From assembly GCF_006345805.1 (NCBI RefSeq), contig NC_043020.1, forward strand, positions 4,526,001 through 4,590,000: a stretch of 64,000 nt of DNA, read 5' to 3'. The stretch's first letter is position 1; the number at the start of each line of letters is the position of its first letter. The notes under the pieces are model-generated. The model did no database searches and was not told the origin of the DNA. It was given only the letters and a program-made list of their open reading frames with translations. This document shows, one piece after another, positions 1,317 through 55,071 of this stretch. This DNA comes from Octopus sinensis. Lineage: Eukaryota. The position numbers were made by a program, and so were the translations under genes.

Positions 1317-3451
1317 GCCTTTGCACAGCTTCTAATGCTGGAGATGTACTACGGTGTCAGCTCTTCACTTCACTACCAGTGAATTAAGGTAACACCTCTT
1401 ATTTTTCGAGCACCTTCCAGAGTATTCGAGTGGTTCCAAGCAGTGCTGTTTTCTGCAAGTGCTTCACCCTTATTGCAGCCCGTATTTGTTCCACATACTT
1501 CTTGAGATTTTTGGTCACTGTTCCCAGGTCTCTGACAATTATTGGTACCACTGCTACCTTTTTCATCGACCACAACTGCTTAACTTCCCAAGCTAACCTG
1601 TCATATCTCTTGACTTTTCTTTCTTCCTTATCGCACACCTTGTTGTCAGCTGGGCATGGTATATCTATGATCCAGCATAGTTTGCTTTCTTTATTAATTA
1701 AGACTACGTCTGGCTTCCTATTCTCTGTCTCATGGTCGCACTGAATCATAAAATCCCATAGGATCTTTGCATTTCCATTTTCGACGATGCCTTTAGGCTT
1801 GTGGTCATACCAATTTTTTGCTCTGTCAAGTCCATACTTGTAGCAAACTGTCCAATGGACAAGCCTGGCTATATTGTCATGGCATCTCTTATATTCCTTC
1901 AGGGTTAGTGGCATACATTGGCTGGTAATATGCCATACGGTTTCACTGTTTTGTCCACAGATTCTGCACTTATCACTTTCTGCTGTGTTGTCTATTCTGT
2001 ATTTTATGTAGTTTGTTCTTAGTGCTTGCTCTTGGGCAGCACTGATTAGAGCCTCCATTTCTGGTTTTAAATCACTTTTAGTCATCCACAGCCATCTTTT
2101 TTCTCTGTCTTTCTTATCTTCAACATCCCTATGAAATTGACCATGCATTCTTTTCTTTACCCACCTATTTTTAATTTCATTCGTTTTTAATTTCTTGTAT
2201 TGTACTTTGCAATCTTTCATCCTACCCAAGCCTGACCTTCCTACTTCTAATAATAGCGGTTCTGTGGCATTATTTACATACCATGCTATGTTGTTTTCTT
2301 CTGCTCTAATGCTGTGTTCACATCCAATAAATCCTCTTCCTCCTCTTTTTCTTGGTACTTACAGTCTGTCTGTGTCACTTTTTTGTGTAGAGTGACCCAT
2401 ATCTAGTTAGCAACTTCCTTGTCTTTTTGTCAAAGCTGTCTAGTTCGTCTACTGTCCATGCGATTACTCCTGCTCCATATCTAAGGAGTGAAACTGCCCA
2501 GGTGTTGATAGCTTCGATCTTATTCCGCCTGTTTAATTTCAACTTAAGGATCAGTCTCAGTCTGCGCAAGTACTCCACCTTAAATTTTTCTGTCATTTCT
2601 TTGTCCATCAATTTATCCATTTCCATAATCCCCAAGTACTTATAGCCTGTCTGCTTCATAACCTCCCCCAACGGTATCGCACTGATATCAGCACTGAAAG
2701 TAGACACTGTATCAACGAGGGAACTGACTTGGGCTTCATCTTTACCATAAAGTTTGAGGTCATCCATGAATAACAAATGGTTGACTTTTTGTTGGCGGCT
2801 TTTGAATACATACCCAACTTTTGCTTTCCTCAGAATCAGTGTTAGTGGTATCAAGCACAGTACAAAGATCAGTGGAGACAGGCAGTCCCCATGGAAGATA
2901 CCCCTCCTAATTTCTACTGTCCCTAAACTTCTTCCGTATGCTGTCAGGTCCGTCCTCCAATTCGCCATACTTTTTCCAAGTAATCACTCAACATTTGCTG
3001 CAATACCAAATAGATTCATACATTCCATTATCCAAGAGTGTGGGGGCATATCGTACACCTTAAGATAGTTAACCCATGACATGGCTAAGTTACTTTTCCT
3101 CCTTTTGCAGTCTCTTAAGTACAGTTTTGTCTACCAAGAGTTGATCCTTGGTACCTCTACACTTATGCTTGCAACCCTTCTGCTTGTGTGGCAGGACTCC
3201 ATTTTTCCCCAGATGTTCGTACATTGACTCTGCGAGTATTCCAGTCAATAACTTCCACATAAGTGGCAAACATGATATCAGCCTGTAATTGTCTACCGTA
3301 TTGTCTTTCTCGAGGTTTTTCAGGCACAGCCCTGTCCTACCCCATGTAAACCACTCCGGCTTTACTTGTTTGGCATTTAATAAGGTGTTGAGTTGCGCAG
3401 CTATTCGTGCATGACATTCATAAAATCTTTTGATCCTGTAGCTTTGAATGC

Positions 3452-15404: not shown

Positions 15405-18400
15405 AGGTTGTCAGGGTGTGTGATAGGGTACTTAAGCTCTGGCTAGTCCTACAGAACAGCACAGCTACAATTATCTCTGCCTACACCCCACATGCGGGGC
15501 TACCAAATGGTCAGAAGGACCACTTTTATGATACCCTTCTGCAGGCTACCTCAAAGATGAGTGGAAATGACTTCGCCTTTGTGGCTGGAAACTTTAATGG
15601 GCATGTTGGGCGGGAATCTGGTATCTTCACTGGGCTACACGATGGCCATGGTATTGGCACCTGAAACGATGAGGGGACTAGGCTACTGGAAATCTGTGAT
15701 GCATGTAACCTTTTAATCTGCAACACTAACTTCAGGAAGCCAAACAGCCATCTGATAACCTGTCAGTCAGGGGACTCTGCTAGCCAGATTGATTTCATCC
15801 TCACCAGACAGCTGGACGCAGGGTTGCTCTTAAATACAAAGACCCTCCCAGGTGAAGAATGTACCCCCCAGCATAGGTTAGTCATTAGTGACTTTAGGCT
15901 CGAGGCCAGAAGGATACCTAGAAGCAGACCAATCCAGAAAAGAAGGATTTGGAAGCTAAAGAACTCTTCACACGGTCAGAGATTTAGGACTACAGACGTC
16001 GGACATAGAAGGTAGTTGGAAATTCCTACGGGACAGCTTGCTGAATGCCACAGACCAAGTCTGTGGATGGGGTAAAGTCCCTTCCAGACCCAGAGTTACA
16101 TGGTGGTGGAATAGAACAGTAGACAAAGCCGTTAGGGCAAAGAAACAGGCCTGGAAAGCCTTGAAGGATGGTGGTAGCAGGGAACGGTACCAGGTAGCCA
16201 GAAGGGAGGCTGGGTGGCAGGTATACATAACCAAGAGTGAAGCAGAAAAGAAGAGGTTTGCCAATGTCCAGAGACGTGAGGACCAAAGAACTGAGGTATT
16301 TCGGATTGCAAGACAGTTTGTGAGAGAAAATTGTGATGTCACAGGAGAGAAATGGATGATGGTGCACTTGCTTTTAGTGATTCTGAAAAGAAAGAGTCTT
16401 GGAGACGCCATTATGAAAGACTGCTGAATGTGAGGAGAGCCTTCCAAATGTTGACCCAGTAGAGGGACCAGCTATCCAAATAGACAGCTCCCTAGTAGTT
16501 AAAGCAATTAAGGATATGAAGCCAGGAAAAGCCCGTGACCCATCAGGAATCACTGCTGAGATGCTTAAAGCATCTGGTGGTGTGAGCTATGGCTTCGTCA
16601 CCTGCATTGTAAACCAGGTAGTACATACTGAATGACTGGTGTAGCAGCACCATAGTTAACTGCTACAAGGGTAAAGGTGATGCTCTAGATAGGAATAACG
16701 ACAGGAGTATTAAACTGCTGGATCAGGTGATGAAGGTCACAGAGAGGGTCATAGTCCATCTCATTAGGGAGAGAGTCTGCTTAGATGAGATGCAGCTTGG
16801 TTTTGTTCTGGGTAGAAGCACCACTGATGCCATATTCCTTGTTCGACAACTGCAGGAGAAATACCTAGCTAAAGATAAACCCCTCTACTTAGCTTTTGTG
16901 GACTTGGAGAAAGCCTTTGACAGGGTCCCCGATCCCTTATCTGGTGGGCAGTGTGGAAACTGGAGATTGACGAATGGTTGATAAGGGCTGTACAGGCCCT
17001 ATACAGAGATGCCGTTAGTTGGCAACGAATATAGTGAAGAATTCCTGGTAGAAGTAGGGGTCCACCAAGGTTCAGCCCTTAGTCCCCTTCTATTCATCAT
17101 AGTCCTCTAGGCAATAACAGAGGAATTCAAGACGGGTTGCCCCTGGAAGCTCCTCTATGCTGATGACCTGGCCCTCATAGCAGAATCACTACCGGAACTA
17201 GAAAAGAAATTTCAGGTGTGGAAGCTAGGTTTAGAATCAAAGGGCCTTAGAGTAAATGTAGCAATGACCAAAGTTATAGTCAGCAGAAAGGCGAACTCAT
17301 CACACACCCCGTCGGGCAGGTGGCCCTGCTCGATCTGTAGAAAAGGTGTAGGTAGAAACTCCATAAGATGTACCCAGTGTAAGCTATGGACGCATAAGAG
17401 GTGCAGCAACATCAAAGGAAAATTAACTGATAAGATAGCTTTCATGTGCGGCAGATGCACGGGCAATAGACACCACAGATACTCAGAAAACATTCCATCA
17501 CACTCCAGGGAGAGAAACTAGAATTAGTTGATAGTTTCCGCTACCTAGGAGACCAAGTTAGTAGTGGAGGTGGATGCTCAGAGAGTGTCACCACTAGAAT
17601 ACGAATAGCCTGGGCAAAGTTTAGAAAGCTCCTACCCCTACTGGCGACAAAGGGCCTCTCGCTCAGAGTGAAAGGTAGATTGTACGATGCATGTGTGCGA
17701 ACTGCCATGCTTCACGGCAGTGAAACATGGACTGTGACTGCAGAAGACATGCGTAGACTTGAAAGAAATTAAACTAGCATGATCCACTGGATGTGTAATA
17801 TCAGTATGCACACACAACAGAGTGTAAGCGCCCTGAGAGAAATGCTGGACATAAGAAGCATCAGATATGGCGTGCAAGAGAGACGTTTGCGCTGGTATGG
17901 TCATGTACTGCGGATGGATGAGGAGAGATGTGTGAAGAAGTGCCACTCCCAAACAGTTGAAGGTATCAGGGGAAGAGGTAGACCCAGGAAGACATGGGAT
18001 GAGGTGGTCAAGCATGACCGAACGTTGGGCCTCACAGAGGCAATGACGAAAGACCGATATCTCTGGAGATATGCTGTGACTGCAAAGACCCGTCTGCTTC
18101 CGTTACCAGTTTCGCATAGCCCCAACCCATCAAAAGTACCTTGGATTGCAGAACGACCTGCTGTGCTTACCTTGGATCGTAGGGTGACCTGCTGTGCTTG
18201 AGGAGACCTATTGAGTCAAGTACATCAATATCAAAATAAATATTAAATGGAAATTGTAGTTACGATACCTGTGCCGGCAGCGCGTAAAAAGCACCATCCG
18301 AACGTGGCCGATGCCAGCGCCGCGTTGACTGGCTTCTGTACCAGTTAGGGTTAGGGTTAGGCACGTAAAAAGCACCAACCGATCGTGGCCTCTGCCAGCC

Positions 18401-25801: not shown

Positions 25802-25851
<50 letters not shown>

Positions 25852-25949
25852 TTAGAGACAAACCCACTATTTTGCAAATCAAACAAGGAAAGACTTAATC
25901 AATACATAAAAAAATTTTAATATAATATTAATATAAAGTAAATAAATCG

Positions 25950-25993
25950 CCACTACAATTGTTTCATGTCTTCAAATGACATTCATCAGGTGG
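25950..25993 (-). ncRNA. Mirror copy of the hammerhead ribozyme
   Basis: Exact reverse complement of 26046-26089. Confidence 0.85.
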
Positions 25994-26045
25994 ATTCATA
26001 TCTTCTATTCAATTTTAAGTTAAAATTTAATAGAAGATATGAAAT

Positions 26046-26089
26046 CCACCTGATGAATGTCATTTGAAGACATGAAACAATTGTAGTGG
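26046..26089 (+). ncRNA. Minimal type I hammerhead ribozyme (Penelope type)
   Basis: Stem I ccac/gtgg, core CTGATGA (26050-56), stem II atgtc-atttgaa-gacat, GAAA, palindromic stem III caattg, GUA cleavage triplet ending at 26085. Confidence 0.85.
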
Positions 26090-26273
26090 CGATTTATTTA
26101 CTTTATATTAATATTATATTAAAATTTTTTTATGTATTGATTAAGTCTTTCCTTGTTTGATTTGCAAAATAGTGGTTTTGTCTCTAATTAATATTATATA
26201 ATATTTTACTATAAAATTGGATTCATTCCTAAATCTGATTTTTCCCTGTAAATTTGGATTTATTCCCTAATAT

Positions 26274-26343
<70 letters not shown>

Positions 26344-26579
26344 TATAATGGAATAATTACTATGAATATATTGTATAAAGGATCATGGGTAAGGCCAAAA
26401 CAATGCGAAGTAAATGCAAGGTAAATCGCAAGAAAACAAATATATGAATTAATATAGACTTACCTTGTATTCAATATTTCGGGGTTGTGACCTTATTTTC
26501 AAGAAGTTGACAAATGTTGCTGATGTGCGTGTGTGTGAAAATGCATTTACTTTCGCATTATTTTGGCCCTACCCACGAT

Positions 26580-26614
<35 letters not shown>

Positions 26615-26619
<5 letters not shown>

Positions 26620-26667
26620 TACTTGGAGAAGAGAAATGAAACGAAACGACGCGAGGGCGCTCAGATA

Positions 26668-26726
<59 letters not shown>

Positions 26727-26774
26727 TATAATATAATATAATATAATATAATATAATATACATCTATATATCTG

Positions 26775-26816
<42 letters not shown>

Positions 26817-26923
26817 ATATAATATAATATAATATAATATACATCTATATATCTGTATATTATATATATATATATAAACTTACTTGGAGAAGAGAAAAGA
26901 AACGAAACGACGCGTGGGCGCTC

Positions 26924-26930
<7 letters not shown>
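26615..26930 (+). repeat. Duplicated 55-bp segment within (TA)n/(ATATA)n arrays
   Basis: aaacttacttggagaagagaaa..cgaaacgacgcg.gggcgctcag at 26615 and 26876. Confidence 0.8.
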
Positions 26931-26985
<55 letters not shown>

Positions 26986-27005
26986 GTATAATATACATCT
27001 ATATA

Positions 27006-27078
<73 letters not shown>

Positions 27079-27293
27079 GATATATATATTTTATACAATA
27101 TATAATGCACACACACACACACACACGTACATAACTTAAAGGTAATGGATAAACCGTTTCATCACGAAATAGAATTGAAATATGAAAAATCAAACACCGT
27201 TGCTGTTTTAAATAATACGTTACAGAATATATATATATCATTATTAATCATAGTGTTGTTGAGCTTACGGTGTTATTTACAGGTTAAATAGCT

Positions 27294-29972
27294 TTACTGA
27301 TAGGTTCGGAAAGGTAGAAAAGTATTCGGTGCGGTCTGGTAGTGGGGGTCATACTCATAATAAACTTTGTGGCTGTCGATGTTCGGTTTGTAATCAGTAT
27401 ACCCCGGGTAGATACCGAACCTGTACCGATATCTTGCTGTGTACGATATCTGGTTAGGATTTGCTCTAGGGATTGTTACCACCGGAATGGAGTACTTTGA
27501 TGCCCAATGCTTTCGAGGATGGTTCCTAAAGCCGCCAATGTTCCAGTTGTTGTTCGTTGATCTAGGAATCTCGTCCAGAAGTCCGTCCCCAACTGATTTT
27601 CTCCAATCTGGATAAGAGAAAGATTCGAACCAATGTCTTTGATTTTCAACTTCTGCTATGTCTTTCCGCAGTTGTTGCTTCATTTTGCCTTCGTGGAAAC
27701 TGAAAGTTTTCCCGAAGTGGTCAAGATTGAAACCTTCGTGTCTGGCTAAGAAATTATTGGAATGGAATGCCATTTGATGAGAAACAGCATCTACAGTATT
27801 AGCGGCAATATCAGCTGTATTAAAGGGCTGAACGTGGTGGTTAGGCAACGTGAAATCGAATTCAGATAGATCACGTTTCTTTCTGGTCGATCGAAGTTTC
27901 TTACGATTTTGTAAAATATCCGATGAAGAAGCTGGGAGAACATCTTTGGTCCGCAATTTAGGTTTTTCTGTTCGGTTACTTTTGTCTTCGCGAGTGATAT
28001 CCTTCTGAGAGTGTTCAGTCTTTGAATTTGCTGCTGAAGAGCAGTTGGAGAGGCATGTCTTCACGTCACCGCCCTTGGGTCCGATATTTTGGCTATCTGT
28101 TCCTTTTTCCGAAGCTGCAGAAGCCACTTTCTTTTCAGAAAACTTCTTCAGTAACCAATTTGGAAATAGTGGCAAGAGAGATTGGAATCGTCTGTCACCA
28201 TTTTTAGATGCCGTAGGAAAACCATTTCCAGTTTCAACTGAGTCCTTTAAGTTTCCATTGAATTTAGAATATATCGATGTTACCGCTAATATTTTCCCAC
28301 TCCGATCACTAGGTGCTATATTAGGGGAGAAATCCATGTGTGAAAAGTTATCATTCTTCAAATTTTGAGATGAAAAATTATTATTTCCATTATTTAGGTG
28401 GCTTCTATGCAAATGATCGCTTTTAGCATTGTTGACTATTTCGTGGCGATTTAGTTGTTTCGGAGAATTTCCTATAATGTCTTTATTATTTCTACTTCGA
28501 GAGTAAGGAAATCTTTCGAAGAAAATATTTCCGTGAAATCTTCGTGAATAGTCGACGGCGGGCGTATTCTGTGATTGTTCGTCAGCCGTTAACCATTGAC
28601 CCGGCATCCAAGGTCCACCGCCAACAAACAAGAAATTCGATTCATTTGGATATTGTCTTCTCGTCATTTCAGCCCCATCTCTTTGGTTATTTCCTGACGC
28701 TTCTGCTCCTTCTTTGTGCTCATCGTTTCCATTATTATTAAACTGGAATGCGTTTTTGTCCATTTTTACCACCACAATAGGAATTTTTTGACGTTCAACA
28801 AAATTTGTGGGCGAGAAAAATGGAGACCATCGATTCTCAAGTTGGAAATCATTAAATCTGAAAGAGTTTTCTTTCCCCGGCCATTTGCGTTTTGGCACAA
28901 AGTTTTTTGGTTTATCATCATCAAATTCTTGAAGACGTGGTGGTTTTCTATAAATACCTCTTGTTTGACGTTTCGTTCGCCGCAGTGGCGAAACAAGATC
29001 TCTTTTCAACACAGGTTCTACTGAAAAGATAACTAATTTATTTCTAAAATTTGGATTTGGATTCAGCTGAAGATTGCCACTTTTTGCCAGAATGATTGGT
29101 ATATTTCTCTGATAAGCATGAAAATTACGATCCACACTGTTTTCGAATACTGCTTGTTGCAGACTTTCAAAACCATTGTTTTCTATACCAGGATAATATT
29201 GTTTCGCTCGAAGTTCTCTGTTAAAATTTAAGCGATCAAAAACTTTGTGATATCTTTGTCTTTCGGTATTTTCTACCCTCTCAGCTGTTGGACGCCACAA
29301 TAAATCCCGATTTCGAACAACAGCGGAATTGAGTGGGAAAATCTCCACGGGATGAACAAACTTTGTTTGAATACTTTGTACGGGATATAGAAATATTGGT
29401 TGTTCATTACTAGTGTCATCCTGACTTAACCATTGTCTTCTTGCATGAAACTCTCGTGCAGGTAGATGCATAAATCGACCGTTTTCAGTGGGATGATTGA
29501 AGCTTTGTTGGTGTTGATCAGCATCGATAAATCGATCATTTTGAAGAAATGATGGCGACTGATCTTGACTGTGTGCTCTGCTGGTGGGCTTTAATGATTT
29601 ATCTTGAGACATCAGCTTAATCAACCACGTGGGATAATTTGTCGAATTGGCTGGCAAATCAGGAACCCCTTTGAATTCTGGATGGTCGTTCCAAAACTGT
29701 TGCGAATCTTCCTTTCTCGGAAATAGTGGAAAGTCTGGCGTTGTGTTTGTCTGAAACTCATCCTGCTGCTTCTCGTGATAGCTCTGAGCAGAAGAGTACT
29801 GTCTTTCAGTTGTGGTTTGCAGTATAGGTTCCACTGTTGCACTAACTGCGGTAGCTTGCTCGGTATTTTCGGGAATATCTGGAACTGAGGCGTTCAAATT
29901 TTCGCCAAATATACTTGATACAATGACGAACAGAAAGAGGATCGCAAATGACAATGTCTTCTGACCACACAT
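27294..29972 (-). CDS. Uncharacterised 892-aa secreted protein, precursor-like, single coding exon
   Basis: 2.68-kb uninterrupted ORF in TE-degraded surroundings; strong acceptor ttattttctttccag| 13 nt upstream of the ATG at 29972; signal peptide MCGQKTLSFAILFLFVIVSSIFG; RRTKR and RSTRKKR sites; no recognisable TE or enzyme motif. Confidence 0.85.
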   Translation of the reverse strand: MCGQKTLSFAILFLFVIVSSIFGENLNASVPDIPENTEQATAVSATVEPILQTTTERQYSSAQSYHEKQQDEFQTNTTPDFPLFPRKEDSQQFWNDHPEFKGVPDLPANSTNYPTWLIKLMSQDKSLKPTSRAHSQDQSPSFLQNDRFIDADQHQQSFNHPTENGRFMHLPAREFHARRQWLSQDDTSNEQPIFLYPVQSIQTKFVHPVEIFPLNSAVVRNRDLLWRPTAERVENTERQRYHKVFDRLNFNRELRAKQYYPGIENNGFESLQQAVFENSVDRNFHAYQRNIPIILAKSGNLQLNPNPNFRNKLVIFSVEPVLKRDLVSPLRRTKRQTRGIYRKPPRLQEFDDDKPKNFVPKRKWPGKENSFRFNDFQLENRWSPFFSPTNFVERQKIPIVVVKMDKNAFQFNNNGNDEHKEGAEASGNNQRDGAEMTRRQYPNESNFLFVGGGPWMPGQWLTADEQSQNTPAVDYSRRFHGNIFFERFPYSRSRNNKDIIGNSPKQLNRHEIVNNAKSDHLHRSHLNNGNNNFSSQNLKNDNFSHMDFSPNIAPSDRSGKILAVTSIYSKFNGNLKDSVETGNGFPTASKNGDRRFQSLLPLFPNWLLKKFSEKKVASAASEKGTDSQNIGPKGGDVKTCLSNCSSAANSKTEHSQKDITREDKSNRTEKPKLRTKDVLPASSSDILQNRKKLRSTRKKRDLSEFDFTLPNHHVQPFNTADIAANTVDAVSHQMAFHSNNFLARHEGFNLDHFGKTFSFHEGKMKQQLRKDIAEVENQRHWFESFSYPDWRKSVGDGLLDEIPRSTNNNWNIGGFRNHPRKHWASKYSIPVVTIPRANPNQISYTARYRYRFGIYPGYTDYKPNIDSHKVYYEYDPHYQTAPNTFLPFRTYQ

Positions 29973-30109
29973 CGGGAATATTTGCCTGGAAAGAAAATAA
30001 TTAATATTTAAATTCGTAATACAGTGGATAGAAATGGTTTGTTGATAGAATGAGTGAGTGAGAGAGGGGGCAGGGAGAGACAAACCGACAGAACGACAGA
30101 CAGACAGAC

Positions 30110-30110
<1 letters not shown>

Positions 30111-30170
<60 letters not shown>

Positions 30171-30177
30171 CAGATAG

Positions 30178-30228
<51 letters not shown>
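30111..30228. repeat. (GATA)n/(GACA)n microsatellite in the intron
   Basis: Direct reading; it produces the spurious SIYL N-terminal extension of the 979-aa ORF. Confidence 0.95.
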
Positions 30229-30230
<2 letters not shown>

Positions 30231-32523
30231 CAACTAAACATTTATGCATTTTATGAATCCGCTTAGGCATTACGATACTTACAACCAGTTGTTAGACCCC
30301 AGTATGCTTTAGATTAAAGCGTTAGAAGTGTATAGAGCAGTAATATCAATTAATAAATGGCAAAAGAACAGGAGCTAAATAATCACCTTTATTAACTTAC
30401 AGCTGTTTCTGCTATTAAAAAGCATTGCACTCGGAGCTGGTTTGCTTTAAATACTTTAAATGCTTAAATATGTAACATGTCGCTATATCGAATCGAGCCT
30501 GATTTTTTTTTCTGTATTCAGTTAGAATTTCTTGAATATTACCCATGCGATAAAAAAAAAATCTAACCAATCACTATTTCTCCTAAAACTGGCTCCAGAA
30601 AAATTCCATCTTTTTGCGCCTTTCTCATTGAGCCTATACAGCACTATAAATTCAGCACACCTTGTCTACTTGATAGAGTGTATCGACAGACACCAATAGG
30701 AGAAGCCCAACAGCAGCAGCGATAACTTTTTGACTGCTACAATTAACACCAAGTACAAAAACATTCAAACTATGTTTTGTCGTTCGTAGGACTTGACAGT
30801 ATTTACTTTTTATTTACGGGAGGAATAAAAACTTTGTTTATCATAATTATCACAGATATCTGTTCTTCCTAGTATAAACCAATCAACAACTAAATGCCCT
30901 ATCCTTTGACAGCAAAAATTCCACAACATAAAGAAGAGAAACAGACGATCAGAAAGGGAGAATAGAGTCAGATGGCCACAGTCACATAGTGCTGGACAAA
31001 CGGACAGAAGAGGGACAGTTGCATATCCTTCCTAATGCCAATCATTGAACTGGGTGCACCTAGTGAGGTCACCAAGTAGCTCACAGGGTAAGAGCCTTCA
31101 GCTGAGAGGGGGTTGTAGCACTGAGGGAGATGGCTTTAAGCCAGGTGAGGAGAGGTGAATGTATGATAGAGGATAGAAACAGGTGTATTGTAGCAAAAGA
31201 GATACATGGCTACCCTAGTTAGAAAAGGAGAGAAGATGATAAAGAAGTGTCAAGATATACTCTCAAGTTATAGAAAGGGGAACATAAGTGGTCCAGAGGA
31301 TTGGACAAAATGAAGTTGGGAAGCATGTAAAAGGCAGGTGGTAAATGAATAAAGATGGGGATAAGGCGAATGCAGTGAATGATGAAAATGAGATGTGGTC
31401 CTTTGTGAACATCAGGTGGAAAGGAGGAATTAATAGGCACCCAAGCATTTGAACCTGGTATTCAACCTAAGAATAATTCCTTCCATCACTCCAACCAACC
31501 TCCAAACCCCTAAGCCACTAAGAAAAAAAAAGAAAGATAAAATGTCTAATTGCTGTTGAGGGAAGAGTCAAGCCCTAGTAATCTATATTGTAAACTAGCC
31601 TTGGCACATAAACTTGCGCAGGCATATCAATCATTTCTACCATAGGAACAAGGCCTCAAATTTTGGAGGATGTTCATTACATCGATCCTAATGCTTGGTA
31701 CTTATTTCCTCGATCCCAAAAAGATGAAAGGCTAAGTCGACCTCAACGGAATTTTAACTATAAATGTAAAGATAGACGAAATACCACTAAGCATTTTGTC
31801 CAACAAGCAAACAGTTCTGCCAACTTGCACATGAATTTATTGCAGTTTGGGAAAAACTATTTTAAAATGATGTTGACAATATTCAGTTGGTGTAGGGAAT
31901 ATTGATTTACTTAGAACTGTTGCATTCAAATTGTCTTCATAAAAATGTGTCAAAGTAATAATAAAATATAAACAAATACAGAAACTTATAATATAATTTT
32001 ACTCTTACATTTTTCTTTAAGAACCTTTTCACCTGTGAATAAACTATTTTCAGTAACTTTGTTTTCATTGCCTGTTACTAGATAGCCATCTGGTATTGTG
32101 GTAGATATGTTACTGGCATGTATGCAATGATAAAGTGGTTATGTTCACAACTGAGTAAATGATTGCCGTATGTACAATACATACATGCACACACACACAA
32201 ACACACACTCACACACACACACACACACACACAGACGCGCGCGCACACATACACACACACGCACACACACACACAAACTGAACAAGAGATGAGTGCATCG
32301 CATTAACACAAAAGCACGACAGCGTGGATGCATTAGAAACCCTCAACATTTCCAAATAGGCTGGAATTTTTCAAACTTATCTCAAAAGTTTGAGACATGT
32401 CGACCGTAAATGTGAGTCACAGTGGTTCAAGACGTTTTGTTTAAAGTGACATTTCATATTGTTGAAAGTTTTCGCAATTTATTAAATTTTTATAATTTCT
32501 CATTATTTTTATTATTACATTGT

Positions 32524-32749
32524 CGAGCTGGCAGAACAGTTAGCGCACTGGATGAAAATGCTGAGCGGTATTTCGCCCGTCGCAACGTTCAAATTTCAAA
32601 TCCCTTCGAGGTCGACTTTGCCTTTCATCTCTTCGGGATCGATAAATTAAGTACCAGTAAAACACTAGGGTTGATATAATCGACTCATCTCCACCTCCCC
32701 CAAACTGCCCTTGTGGCAAAAATTCTTCTTCTTCTTCTTCTTCTTCTTC

Positions 32750-32796
<47 letters not shown>

Positions 32797-33195
32797 AGGC
32801 GGTGAGCTGGCAGAATCGGTAGCACGCCAAGCGAAATGCTTAATGGTATTTCGTCTGCCGCTACGTTCTGAGTTCAAATTCCGCCGAGGTAAACTTTGCC
32901 TTTCATCCTTTCGGGGTCGATTAAATAAATACCAGTTACGCACTGGGTCAATATAATCGACTTAATCCGTTTGTCTGTCCTTGTTTGTCCTCTCTGTGTT
33001 TAGCCCCTTGTGGGTAGTAAAGAAATAGGTATTTCGTCTGCCGCAACATTCTGAGTTCAAATTCCGCCGATGTCAACTTTGCTTTCATCCCTTAGGGGTC
33101 GATAAATTAAGTACCAGTCAAATGCTGAGGTCGATGCGATCGAGTGTACCTCCCCCCACAAATTCAGGCCTTTTGCCTATAGTAGAAAGGATTAC

Positions 33196-33240
<45 letters not shown>
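32524..33240 (+). mobile_element. Head-to-tail cluster of three family-A SINE copies with (TTC)n/(TTA)n tracts
   Basis: Copies at ~32524-32720, 32798-33027 (ggcggtgagctggcagaatcggttagc A box; gagttcaaattcc B box) and 33028-33190. Confidence 0.85.
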
Positions 33241-33243
<3 letters not shown>

Positions 33244-33279
33244 AAATTTCTAAAGTAAGAAAGTGATGTTAAGACTTAC

Positions 33280-33330
33280 GTGCTGTTCCGATGTGAAAGA
33301 TTCAATGTTGATAGTTGAAAAGTATTGTTG
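33280..33330 (-). other. Candidate non-coding first exon of the 892-aa gene
   Basis: Minus-strand CAC|GTAAGT donor at 33279, in apparently unique sequence with a TATA-like cttataca near 33350; the 5' boundary is a guess. Confidence 0.3.
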
Positions 33331-33894
33331 GTTTTGTAAGTGCGTGTGTATAAGAATTTTGTGGGCATGCAGGTTTGTGTGGGTGTGTAAGATTAGGTTG
33401 GGTTGGAGGGGTAAAGGAGAGAAAGTCACAACAATTACTTGACGGATAAGTAGGTGTAGGTAGATTTCAGGTGAGAGTTTGCTTTAATTGTTCCTTCGTT
33501 ATTTTGTTCTATCTTGATTATTTGGAGGGTAGAAGGTAGGGGGCACATCATAAAGAAGTGGTTCTCATGACAGTGAAGAAAAAGAAGTAGAAGACAAATA
33601 TTAAATTCGACCGATCATACACACACATGTATGTAATAGACATATGTCCAATATCATGTGTGTCCAATATGTTTTGAGTTCAGTTAAACATGGGGCATAC
33701 ACACATACATCACATACATGTGTGTATGTGCATATATGTATAAGTATATGCATGTATATGTATAAATTATACGAATGAATCTATCTGTTTATCTACCTGT
33801 CCGTCTGCCTGTCTGTCTGTTTGTCTTTGTCTCTGTCTCTCTCTCTATATATTGATGTATGTATGTATGTATGTATGTATGTATGTATGTATGC

Positions 33895-44532: not shown

Positions 44533-45449
44533 TTACCAACACGTGTCATGTGAGTTGCGGGTCGCACTGGGGCTTCGGTACCGTCTGCCATCTCGTCGCG
44601 ATCGGCTGGTGCTTCGGCGCTGGGAACTAAGCGATAGGGCCTGTATTTGGTTGGTGAGGGTCTGAATTTGAGCAGCTTGCTGCATCATTAATGCACGCAA
44701 GTCCGAAATCTCGGAAGAACTGGTTTGTGCACGGAAGGGATTGGTACTGGGAGTGACTGGCGTCACCGTCGATACCGTTGGATATTTGTGCGGTACTTCG
44801 GCTATTTTGTCAGCTAGTTCCGCCAGTTCTTCAATGGATGTATTTTCTCTAGTAGAAGCGAGAACAACCTGGGTATTGGAGGGCAGACGCTGGAGAAAAA
44901 GCTGCTTGAAAATTTTTTCCGGGAGGCTCTCATCTCCGAGAAGCTGCTTCCTTCTACAAAGAAGCTGGGACGGCGTTTTGTCACCCAATTCTTCCGATAT
45001 CAGAAGCTGGTGAAGTCGTTTCTGTTGCGATTCGGAGGTTCTGTTTATCAGCGTGGTTTTAAAGGTGTCGCACGACACAGAACCGGGTGGTGCCATGATA
45101 AGATCACGGACAATGTGTGTGATTTCTGGTGACAGAGAACCGATAAGATGCGAAAGTCGAGACGCATCGCTCAGTATTCGGTGAGAAGAATACTGTACCT
45201 CTATATGGTGAAACTATAATGCAGGGTCGTGGGTCCAGAATGGTGGAATTTTCAAAGAAATCGCCGCTTGGAATGCCATGTCGATCGGAGGTATGATGTT
45301 GGCCGCTGGATTCTGTTCCGGCAGGGCCTTTGTGTTCGTTGGAATTCTCATGTGTTTCGTTGCCGGGTGATGTGCAAGCTGTAATTCTTCGACGCGGTTG
45401 ATGAAGCTGGTTCCGGGGAAGGCGCTATTCGTTTGACAGGGTCACCAAA
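44533..45449 (-). mobile_element. Gypsy LTR retrotransposon gag (truncated) with PBS
   Basis: LKIPPFWTHDPAL..IEVQY..VRDLIMAPP..LHQLLISEELGDKTPSQLL..LFLQRLP..LAELADKI..CW; tggtgaccc PBS just after the LTR end. Confidence 0.9.
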
Positions 45450-53870: not shown

Positions 53871-55071
53871 TGTAGACATGACAGAATTAAATAGACATCC
53901 TTATAATTGTTAAAATTTATTTAAATTATTTATTAATTATTATAATGTGAATATCTAATATTTAGTAGACAGGCTCCTTGCATTTTTGAATGCAAGGACC
54001 CTAGCAGGCATGCTACTGATCTGATGAATATTCTCTTCATGATTTTCTTGCCAAGTTTCTTGCAGTAATATCAAAAGATCTGGCTTTAAGGATGCTTTCT
54101 TTTTCTTTTTAGGAAGTATCCCATCCATCATGCCTCAGAGGTGTTCAGTAGGGTTCATATCTGGTGATTGGCTTAGCTATGGAAGCTTTTTAATGCCATT
54201 CTCTTCCAACCAATCCTGGGTCTTTTAGTTGTGCAAGAAAGCCCTATCTTCCATAAATAGTGTTATTTAATCATTTTACCCCTGGAGGTTATAGGAAGAA
54301 GATTTTTCTATAATATGGACACATTTATCTGAGTTTATGTATCCCTCACATTCCACCATTTCTGATTGACTATTGCTCCAAACTGCTCTCCAGACCATCA
54401 CATGTTTCATTGTTGGCTGCAATATATTCACGTGAAAATATTGGTGACTGATTCTCCAGACCCACATTCGACCAGTGTCAGAAAATACAGCAAATCTGGA
54501 TTCATCAGAGAATTTGACAGTGTCCCAAAGTGCTAGTGACCTCTCTACCATTTCACTTGTCCAATCTTTTCTCCATTTGATATTGGCTGGTCGAAGCAGT
54601 GTCTTCTTTCTTGCTGCTCTGCCATAATAGCCAATTTTGCAGAGATAACTGACAGCTATTCTGGGACTGACATCAACTTATTCTGCTATATTGGAGGCCT
54701 TGCAATGAGGATTATCTTACACACTTCTCTTAAGAAAGCAAAGTGTTCTGTCAGAGGGCCTTAGTCTACCTGGGTAAGGTGATATGGACTACTTTCCCGT
54801 TTAGTGAATTGAAAAATTACTCTATTTACTGTAGAAAGTGGAATCACAATGTTTTCTGTGGTTTTAGGCTAAGTCAGCCTTGAAATAGGCGCAGCATATG
54901 GCCTCTTTGTAAATTGGACATTTTTAAGGCTTCTTTTGTACATGGCATGATTAAACAGTTACATATAGAACCTGAAACATATAAATGTCAATTAATAAAA
55001 AAAATATAAACCTCTTCAAGTTATAATAACAATGTGTTAATGGGTATCTATTTACTTTTGTCATGTTTGTG
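53871..55071 (-). mobile_element. Tc1-family DNA transposon, degraded, with TIRs
   Basis: WDTVKFSDESRF, VMVW, FMED, SPDMNPTEHL motifs; TIR cores catgacagaattaaatagacatcc / gggtatctatttacttttgtcatg; TA at 53869-70 and 55072-73. Confidence 0.88.

Follow-up and report, generated by a model that had tools for sequence, protein, structure and literature searches.

What is encoded by the long open reading frame (ORF) on the minus strand at positions 27294–29972 of a 64,000-nucleotide stretch of the Octopus sinensis genome (NCBI RefSeq assembly GCF_006345805.1, contig NC_043020.1, positions 4,526,001 to 4,590,000; hereafter the window)? Translation gives 892 codons followed by a stop. A preliminary description, made from the letters of the window, singled this frame out as the only long intact ORF in 64 kb, and the counts bear this out: 32 stop-to-stop frames in the window reach 120 amino acids (aa), the runner-up measures 319 aa, and the longest open frame obtained in 500 shuffles of the 3.3-kb region was 185 aa. 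A word-based protein search returned one match among 5241 candidates, the uncharacterised O. sinensis protein LOC118767721 (XP_036368640.1; 926 aa), which is 100% identical to the ORF over 892 aa, the ORF corresponding to its residues 35–926; a chance ORF and a transposon ORF were both considered as the identity of the frame and rejected. The cluster of LOC118767721 has two members, the second being CAI9740451.1 from Octopus vulgaris, with 5 residue differences in 892. The gene was found to be single-copy in genome-wide paralogue searches (two of which used a stricter first look), and no paralogue was found within 200 kb on each side (464 kb in all; small exons not sought). LOC118767721 is a genuine octopus gene, spliced and present in a single copy. 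The main feature of its product, overlooked in the preliminary description, is a pair of short conserved blocks at the two ends of the protein, which, judged by sequence comparison, appear to define a small clade-restricted secreted protein family matching no described family.

Evidence for the transcript comes from public sequencing runs, 20 of the 24 listed containing part of the stretch and 15 at least half of it (8 studies; none recorded as RNA); the contigs of four runs (X1, X2, X14 and X18) were compared over 27130–30105. The X2 contig (2899 nt) tracks the window from 27130, departs from it exactly at 29985 and continues with 25 non-matching letters, the single match of which, in the window and in the genome, is 33280–33304. 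A GTAAGT donor directly follows this upstream exon match, delimiting a 3294-nt GT-AG intron, and the splice acceptor (..TTTTCTTTCCAG↓G) lies 13 nt 5' of the ATG; an acceptor at this distance and splicing at 29985 had been predicted, and it is this site that X2 uses. The splice is visible in one of the four compared runs (X2); X18 (1503 million letters, of unrecorded kind) crosses the acceptor unspliced to 30088, and the X1 and X14 contigs end at 29964 and 29870, short of the acceptor. The upstream exon carries an in-frame ATG at 33368, used by RefSeq and adding a 34-aa hydrophilic N-terminal extension, and translation from this ATG across the X2 junction reproduces the 926-aa RefSeq protein (P0002) exactly. 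The X2 junction and the agreement with RefSeq therefore establish that a transcript exists. The gene is laid out as follows:

33280–33368, minus strand: 3' part of the upstream exon; the loose end of X2 covers 33280–33304, and the spliced translation from 33368 equals P0002.
29986–33279, minus strand: intron of 3294 nt, GTAAGT...TTTCCAG, from the X2 contig junction.
27294–29972, minus strand: coding sequence of the 892-aa precursor, in a single exon beginning at 29985; by translation equal to LOC118767721 aa 35–926.
27130–27293, minus strand: start of the 3' untranslated region; the spliced X2 contig extends to 27130 and past it.

The O. vulgaris model begins differently. The first 187 aa of CAI9740451.1 match a DUF7041 gag-like ORF at 44533–45213 of the window (minus strand) in 186 of 187 residues, and this retrotransposon gag-like first exon is most likely a gene-prediction artefact. 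The gag-fused 1083-aa gene model was rejected, X2 splicing to 33280 and not to 44.5 kb. The N-termini of both public gene models, one of them transposon-fused, are probably wrong, an error that would conceal the signal peptide from secretome screens.

The preliminary description had taken the protein for an orphan, which does not hold in the strict sense. Among 1.84 billion entries, an exhaustive HMMER search had two matches: besides the gene, it found a 66-aa fragment with 58% identity to aa 833–891, and a profile built from these two retrieved a 1047-aa protein, P0005 (2 matches among 48 candidates). This protein belongs to a Logan cluster of 25 related members of 1043–1047 aa (15 listed, P0005–P0019; three subgroups 91–94% identical). 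P0005 matches only two stretches of the octopus genome, both at the LOC118767721 locus, and is therefore, on sequence, its likely orthologue; we infer that it comes from another cephalopod. The octopus protein and this relative have in common an N-terminal signal, an N-terminal block (N-block), an R-x-K-R↓Q and an R-x-K-R↓D site (arrows mark predicted cuts), an aromatic/His-rich last product and a C-terminal block (C-block):

29904–29972, minus strand: predicted signal peptide, aa 1–23, likely cut IFG↓ENL (hydropathy and the -3,-1 rule); the relative too has a hydrophobic N-terminal signal.
29607–29738, minus strand: conserved N-block, aa ~79–122 (44 aa), Pro/aromatic, of no family; 47% identity over 53 aa to P0005 (z = 24, 200 shuffles).
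28968–28979, minus strand: furin-type site 1, RTKR↓Q, aa 332–335; RTKR↓Q or RNKR↓Q in the relative, at relative position 0.40 versus 0.38 here.
27873–27884, minus strand: furin-type site 2, RKKR↓D, aa 697–700; RQKR↓D in the relative, at 0.83 versus 0.78 here.
27480–29102, minus strand: three I-P-[IV] motifs (aa 291, 397 and 829); [IV]P[IV] occurs 3 times against 0.44 expected, a post hoc pattern and one of six tried.
27297–27872, minus strand: predicted C-terminal product, aa 701–892, 22.7 kDa, 16.7% aromatic, 6.2% His; similar in the relative, and compared by pN/pS (the ratio of the proportions of non-synonymous and synonymous differences) with organism C, the source of run X14.
27300–27476, minus strand: conserved C-block, aa 833–891, Tyr/Phe/Arg-rich with a near-invariant core; 34/60 residues (57%) identical to P0005 (expectation value, E, 1e-19; z = 28, 200 shuffles).

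The rest of the chain behaves differently from the two blocks. Over the ~85% between them, alignment to the relative is at shuffle level (three stretches, z -0.8 to 0.6, six tests), and two mid-protein similarities, FxGN.F.E and SLLP.FP, were rejected as being at this level. Among the three subgroups of the cluster, one of the 44 N-block columns and three of the 60 C-block columns vary, compared with 10–20% in the rest of the mature chain. Besides its body, which is unalignable and richer in Pro, the relative differs from the octopus protein in having a third R-x-K-R site and in having no Cys in the mature chain. The last products are of similar size and composition in the two proteins (192 aa, 22.7 kDa, 16.7% aromatic and 6.2% His in octopus versus 183 aa, 21.6 kDa, 19.1% and 9.3% in the relative), that of the relative being acidic (isoelectric point, pI, 5.8–6.2).

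Entry into the secretory pathway is predicted from the first residues. The N-terminal stretch is the most hydrophobic 15-mer of the protein (2.7 on the Kyte–Doolittle scale; next best outside it, 1.2), so that the signal peptide proposed in the preliminary description agrees with hydropathy and with the signal of the relative; hydropathy and -3,-1 sites mark the start of both orthologues as expected of a furin-type proprotein, provided that the downstream ATG is used. The specificity of furin for R-x-K/R-R is established. By themselves, two such sites are within chance for this composition (expected 0.59, p = 0.12), and their significance lies in their conservation in the relative, not in their count: both (2/2) are matched there in position and in the next residue, one subgroup of the cluster altering only the x of site 1 (RTKR to RNKR), and in shuffles of the relative R-x-K/R-R fell at both matching positions 360 times in 100,000 and, when the following residue had to agree as well, 3 times in 100,000 (criterion chosen post hoc). 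The earlier suggestion of a secreted furin-type precursor is thereby supported, and the two cuts would give products of about 36, 42 and 22 kDa. The products expected to start at QTRGIY and DLSEFDF are conserved in the relative at their first residue only.

Several compositional claims of the preliminary description stand in part. The protein was said to be almost free of Cys with one CLSNC pair; the pair is present (C640, C644) and is absent in the relative, and with C2 there are three Cys in the 892 aa, two of them in the mature chain. The tail is indeed rich in Tyr (18% of the last 60 aa, with 11 Tyr in the last 52) versus 2.9% overall in octopus and 1.6% in the relative. Recurring IP-hydrophobic motifs were also described, and IP[IV][IV] occurs three times against 0.02 expected, a pattern picked after inspecting the data; the strict motif has no occurrence in the relative, and only the looser [IV]P[IV], one of the six patterns tried, is enriched in both (5 against 1.2 expected in relatives). 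No 4-mer peptide occurs more than twice in the octopus protein and there are no tandem repeats; it has eight N-glycosylation sequons, four KR pairs and no amidation signal (G-K/R-K/R), the last differing between subgroups in the relatives. The chain is basic and polar (D+E 11.0%, K+R 13.6%, mature pI 9.5), with 4.3% Gly, 4.9% Ala, 3.4% His and 1.0% Met; the last 60 aa have a pI of 9.3, and the C-block core alternates Arg with aromatic residues. A FoldIndex-type calculation predicts 80% disorder in the octopus protein and 83% in the relative. AlphaFold models of the C product and of the C-block had mean predicted local distance difference test scores of 33.5 and 46.7 (the latter from 7 near-redundant alignment rows), both of low confidence and unusable.

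Closer relatives provide a view of present constraint. Nucleotide divergence from organism C is 4–7%, falling from 7.4% in the 5' contig to 4.1% in the 3' contig. A frame intact in relatives, as the preliminary description required of a gene, is what was found: all six indels of organism C relative to the window keep the frame (3, 12, 3, 15, 3 and 39 nt; probability by chance about 0.0014), and the same holds for the single 6-nt insertion of X18 (1/1). The selection counts use 37 of the 126 X14 differences and are near-complete only for the 3' contig (25 of 29). Over aa 701–892 there are 9 synonymous and 11 non-synonymous differences from organism C, giving a pN/pS of 0.35 (p = 0.02), or 0.44 with transition bias (p = 0.06); these divide into 3 synonymous to 1 non-synonymous in aa 833–892, and 6 to 10, not significant, in aa 701–832. 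The R700 codon shows a synonymous change only. The tail is thus the most strongly constrained part, the body being under modest constraint. At window positions 28475 and 28477 (aa 499–500), the reference disagrees with all four compared runs and with the O. vulgaris protein, and so carries either a private allele or a consensus error. Just 3' of the stop, ~650 nt of TA-rich DNA (~26581–27229) are missing from the organism C contig, in which 27230 joins 26580; the ends are not GT-AG, so this part of the 3' region appears to have been inserted or expanded.

The spliced transcript, the kept frame and the conservation of the signal, both R-x-K-R sites and the two end blocks are the observations from which an account of function can start. 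The favoured one, held tentatively and given a little less than an even chance, is that LOC118767721 encodes a furin-processed secreted precursor whose conserved ~22-kDa aromatic tail binds or assembles extracellular matrix. By sequence and furin specificity, the chain would enter the secretory path and be cut into the 36-, 42- and 22-kDa pieces. The basic, polar, mostly disordered body of ~700 aa, of which only length and composition would be needed, could act as a soluble carrier or spacer, preventing aggregation of the aromatic/His-rich tail until it is cut. With least certainty, the 60-aa C-block might dock on a fixed partner, whether itself, a polysaccharide or some other matrix protein, through aromatic/cation–pi contacts, and the N-block might have a separate fixed partner; the material would be something such as cuticle, beak or coat. 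Stacking of His and Tyr is described in PMC9999432 as driving the assembly of squid beak proteins, and assembly of the octopus tail may be likened to this by analogy only. Such a protein would be of an already-known kind, a furin-gated proprotein whose pro-region is disposable, and there is no new mechanism on present evidence. A possible, if doubtful, extension is that the family is cephalopod-wide and undescribed. It would possess a furin-gated aromatic module without repeats, either a matrix-assembly domain of a new type or a new hormone-like ligand for which a dedicated receptor exists, and this module would have persisted from an early split onwards as the remaining 85% of the chain turned over completely.

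A number of points weigh against matrix assembly. The protein is unlike known cephalopod structural proteins, having neither tandem repeats nor Gly/Ala/His modules; a Pfam scan found no chitin-binding or other domain; and a short non-repetitive block that stays 57% conserved across a split, when the remainder of the chain has been erased, is just as typical of a receptor ligand. The depth of conservation is undated, and the selection test is borderline with transition bias allowed and rests on 37 of 126 differences. Lastly, the start codon bears on the whole account, in that the 926-aa RefSeq form could be membrane-anchored. In that alternative, which is very improbable, the true start would be the ATG at 33368, the hydrophobic stretch would be a type II signal-anchor, and furin would shed the ectodomain from the cell surface. 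The RefSeq model uses this start, and its extension has 4 K/R and no D/E, as cytosolic tails often do; against this, all 15 listed relatives (one C-terminally truncated) are called from an ATG directly opening the signal, the X2 contig stops at 33304, before the ATG at 33368 (although contigs cannot show starts), and a TATA-like TTATAC at 33353 lies, as a weak indication, downstream of that ATG.

The main rival to matrix assembly, though unlikely, is a signalling proprotein of VGF/granin- or growth-factor-like layout, of which the cut C-terminal product, with its 60-aa block, would be the receptor ligand. The layout resembles that of granins and VGF, which likewise combine a signal, a disordered body, conserved ends and convertase sites, and a single-copy, non-repetitive protein with conserved ends, free middle and conserved processing sites would suit a ligand. 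The octopus protein nevertheless differs from granins, which are acidic, in being basic (mature pI 9.5; K+R exceeding D+E), in its few dibasic sites (4 KR pairs in 892 aa) and in having no Pfam match, no profile match being found for P0001 or P0005. It also has no disulfide frame, and its C-block has no conserved flanking dibasic site. The classical prohormone considered in the preliminary description fares no better: there are no short repeated peptides between dibasic sites, the products being 22–42 kDa, no G-K/R-K/R, and no conserved peptide beside either cut beyond the first residue, so a classical neuropeptide precursor is not supported by the sequence.

Adhesive functions are less probable still. 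Bindin of sea urchins is cut by furin and has a conserved core of ~55 aa. A gamete or spermatophore adhesion protein of this kind, in which a pro-region is removed and a Cys-free ~22-kDa piece with a small conserved core adheres, equals the octopus protein in overall layout, with a pro-protein giving rise to a C-terminal mature piece of smaller size that contains a short functional core; PMC8403831 describes the pro-protein region of bindin, its mature form and a proposed short site of fusion. It is improbable here, as there is no sequence link (no Pfam or library match), the octopus protein has a second conserved block in the pro-region, the mature piece is under purifying and not positive selection, and the cluster of the relative is present on many contigs (63 for one allele), which seems to exceed expectation for a testis-only gene. 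The preliminary description had also thought of a glue based on 3,4-dihydroxyphenylalanine (DOPA), in which tail Tyr would be hydroxylated and cross-linked. The dense Tyr of the last 52 aa fits such a cement, as do the His nearby, His–catechol cross-links being known from squid beak (PMC9999432). When the 12 Tyr of the last 66 aa are aligned to the relative, 7 have a Tyr counterpart, 3 face Phe and the remaining 2 fall opposite other residues in poorly aligned places; this interchange of Tyr and Phe favours aromatic stacking over DOPA/catechol chemistry at those sites and weakens the glue reading, which is quite improbable also because of the low overall Tyr content and the lack of Tyr–Lys repeats. 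The least probable of the readings weighed here is an antimicrobial role for the cationic aromatic tail, which would be released as a peptide into mucus or egg coat. The Arg/aromatic alternation of the C-block core and the pI of the last 60 aa would suit this, and cuttlefish egg-case proteins are bacteriostatic according to PMC4500399. The last product of the relative is acidic, however. Strong sequence conservation is, moreover, unusual for antimicrobial peptides.

With matrix assembly remaining the favoured reading, the known cephalopod proteins offer a comparison. Reflectins are Met-rich, with an MD(x)5MD repeat, and intracellular; the octopus protein has no MD(x)5MD motif and little Met (1.0%). 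Squid beak DgHBPs and suckerins resemble it in being secreted, cephalopod-restricted and disordered, with His and aromatics in the C-terminal part. According to PMC9999432, DgHBPs contain 20–35% Gly, 16–19% Ala and 10–16% His with GHGXY/GAGFA repeats, and suckerins have Ala/Thr/His plus Gly/Tyr/Leu modules; the octopus protein has 4.3, 4.9 and 3.4% of Gly, Ala and His, no GHGXY/GAGFA motif and no GGY/GGL. Neither a Pfam match nor the Rebers–Riddiford core pattern was found that would place it with beak chitin-binding or cuticle proteins. The pheromone precursors (SPs) and SepECPs of Sepia officinalis are also cephalopod secreted precursors, the SPs being cut at basic sites. SPs are described as precursors of ~250 aa giving Cys-bearing, partly amidated peptides of 1–8 kDa (PMC3484142) and SepECPs as having three Cys-rich domains (PMC4500399), whereas the mature octopus chain has two Cys and that of the relative none.

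Searches for a known family agree with the view of the preliminary description that no family can be recognised and that the protein is lineage-restricted. Neither the whole protein nor the blocks nor P0005 had a Pfam match above the cut-off. Two PDB sequence matches, Abraxas 2 (E 0.016) and a spike protein (E 0.37), were rejected as chance, and the ESM Atlas gave no usable match, three unnamed eukaryote clusters at 0.81–0.83 being leads only, with none for the tail. In a metagenome scan for the pattern, none of 545 matches was confirmed, and a search for shorter relatives scored none of three candidates although P0004 exists, so that this search misses relatives.

Cephalopod materials and signals usually derive from secreted proteins restricted to the clade, most of which exist only as annotations. 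This gene too is already annotated but unstudied, and what is new is a clade-restricted family of familiar architecture. In the library searched, no literature was found that names the LOC118767721 or CAI9740451.1 accessions or the protein motifs, although larger marker tables may still name the gene; the supplements of PMC9712504, PMC11202624 and PMC12607849 do not mention it and are uninformative, the first two being without LOC-id tables and the third amounting to 393 characters. The comparison presented here narrows an uncharacterised protein of 900 aa to a pair of short conserved blocks and a pair of cut sites that are likewise conserved, and a synthetic 60-aa peptide, one antibody or an in-situ probe could therefore test function.

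The preliminary description held every transposon ORF around the gene to be broken; a spot check covered fragments of reverse transcriptase, PHD, DUF7041 and Tc1 type. In the window, reverse transcriptase (RT) and zf-RVT domains lie in two adjacent ORFs at 1399–2983 (minus strand), and there are a PHD-finger ORF fragment at 17111–17521 (plus strand) and a piece of a Tc1-type transposase at 54276–54677 (minus strand). In the flanks, six of the nine long ORFs tested are RT or PIF1 transposon pieces and three gave no family. Open non-long-terminal-repeat RT frames of 1057 and 1044 aa are present ~95–135 kb from the gene (L034:2051-5221, minus strand, and L037:5686-8817, plus strand); intact transposon ORFs of such length therefore do exist near the gene, beyond the window. 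Pieces of PIF1-helicase ORFs, probably from Helitrons, are found at L025:606-1340 (plus strand) and L033:6587-7804 (minus strand), and a tandem-repeat array with several frames open for 170–550 codons, probably a minisatellite, at L028:5215-7135 (plus strand). About 1.1 kb downstream of the stop, an inverted repeat at 25839–26200 of the window has 158-nt arms, 99% complementary and 46 nt apart, resembling a miniature inverted-repeat transposable element, and a shorter imperfect inverted repeat lies at about 26380–26580.

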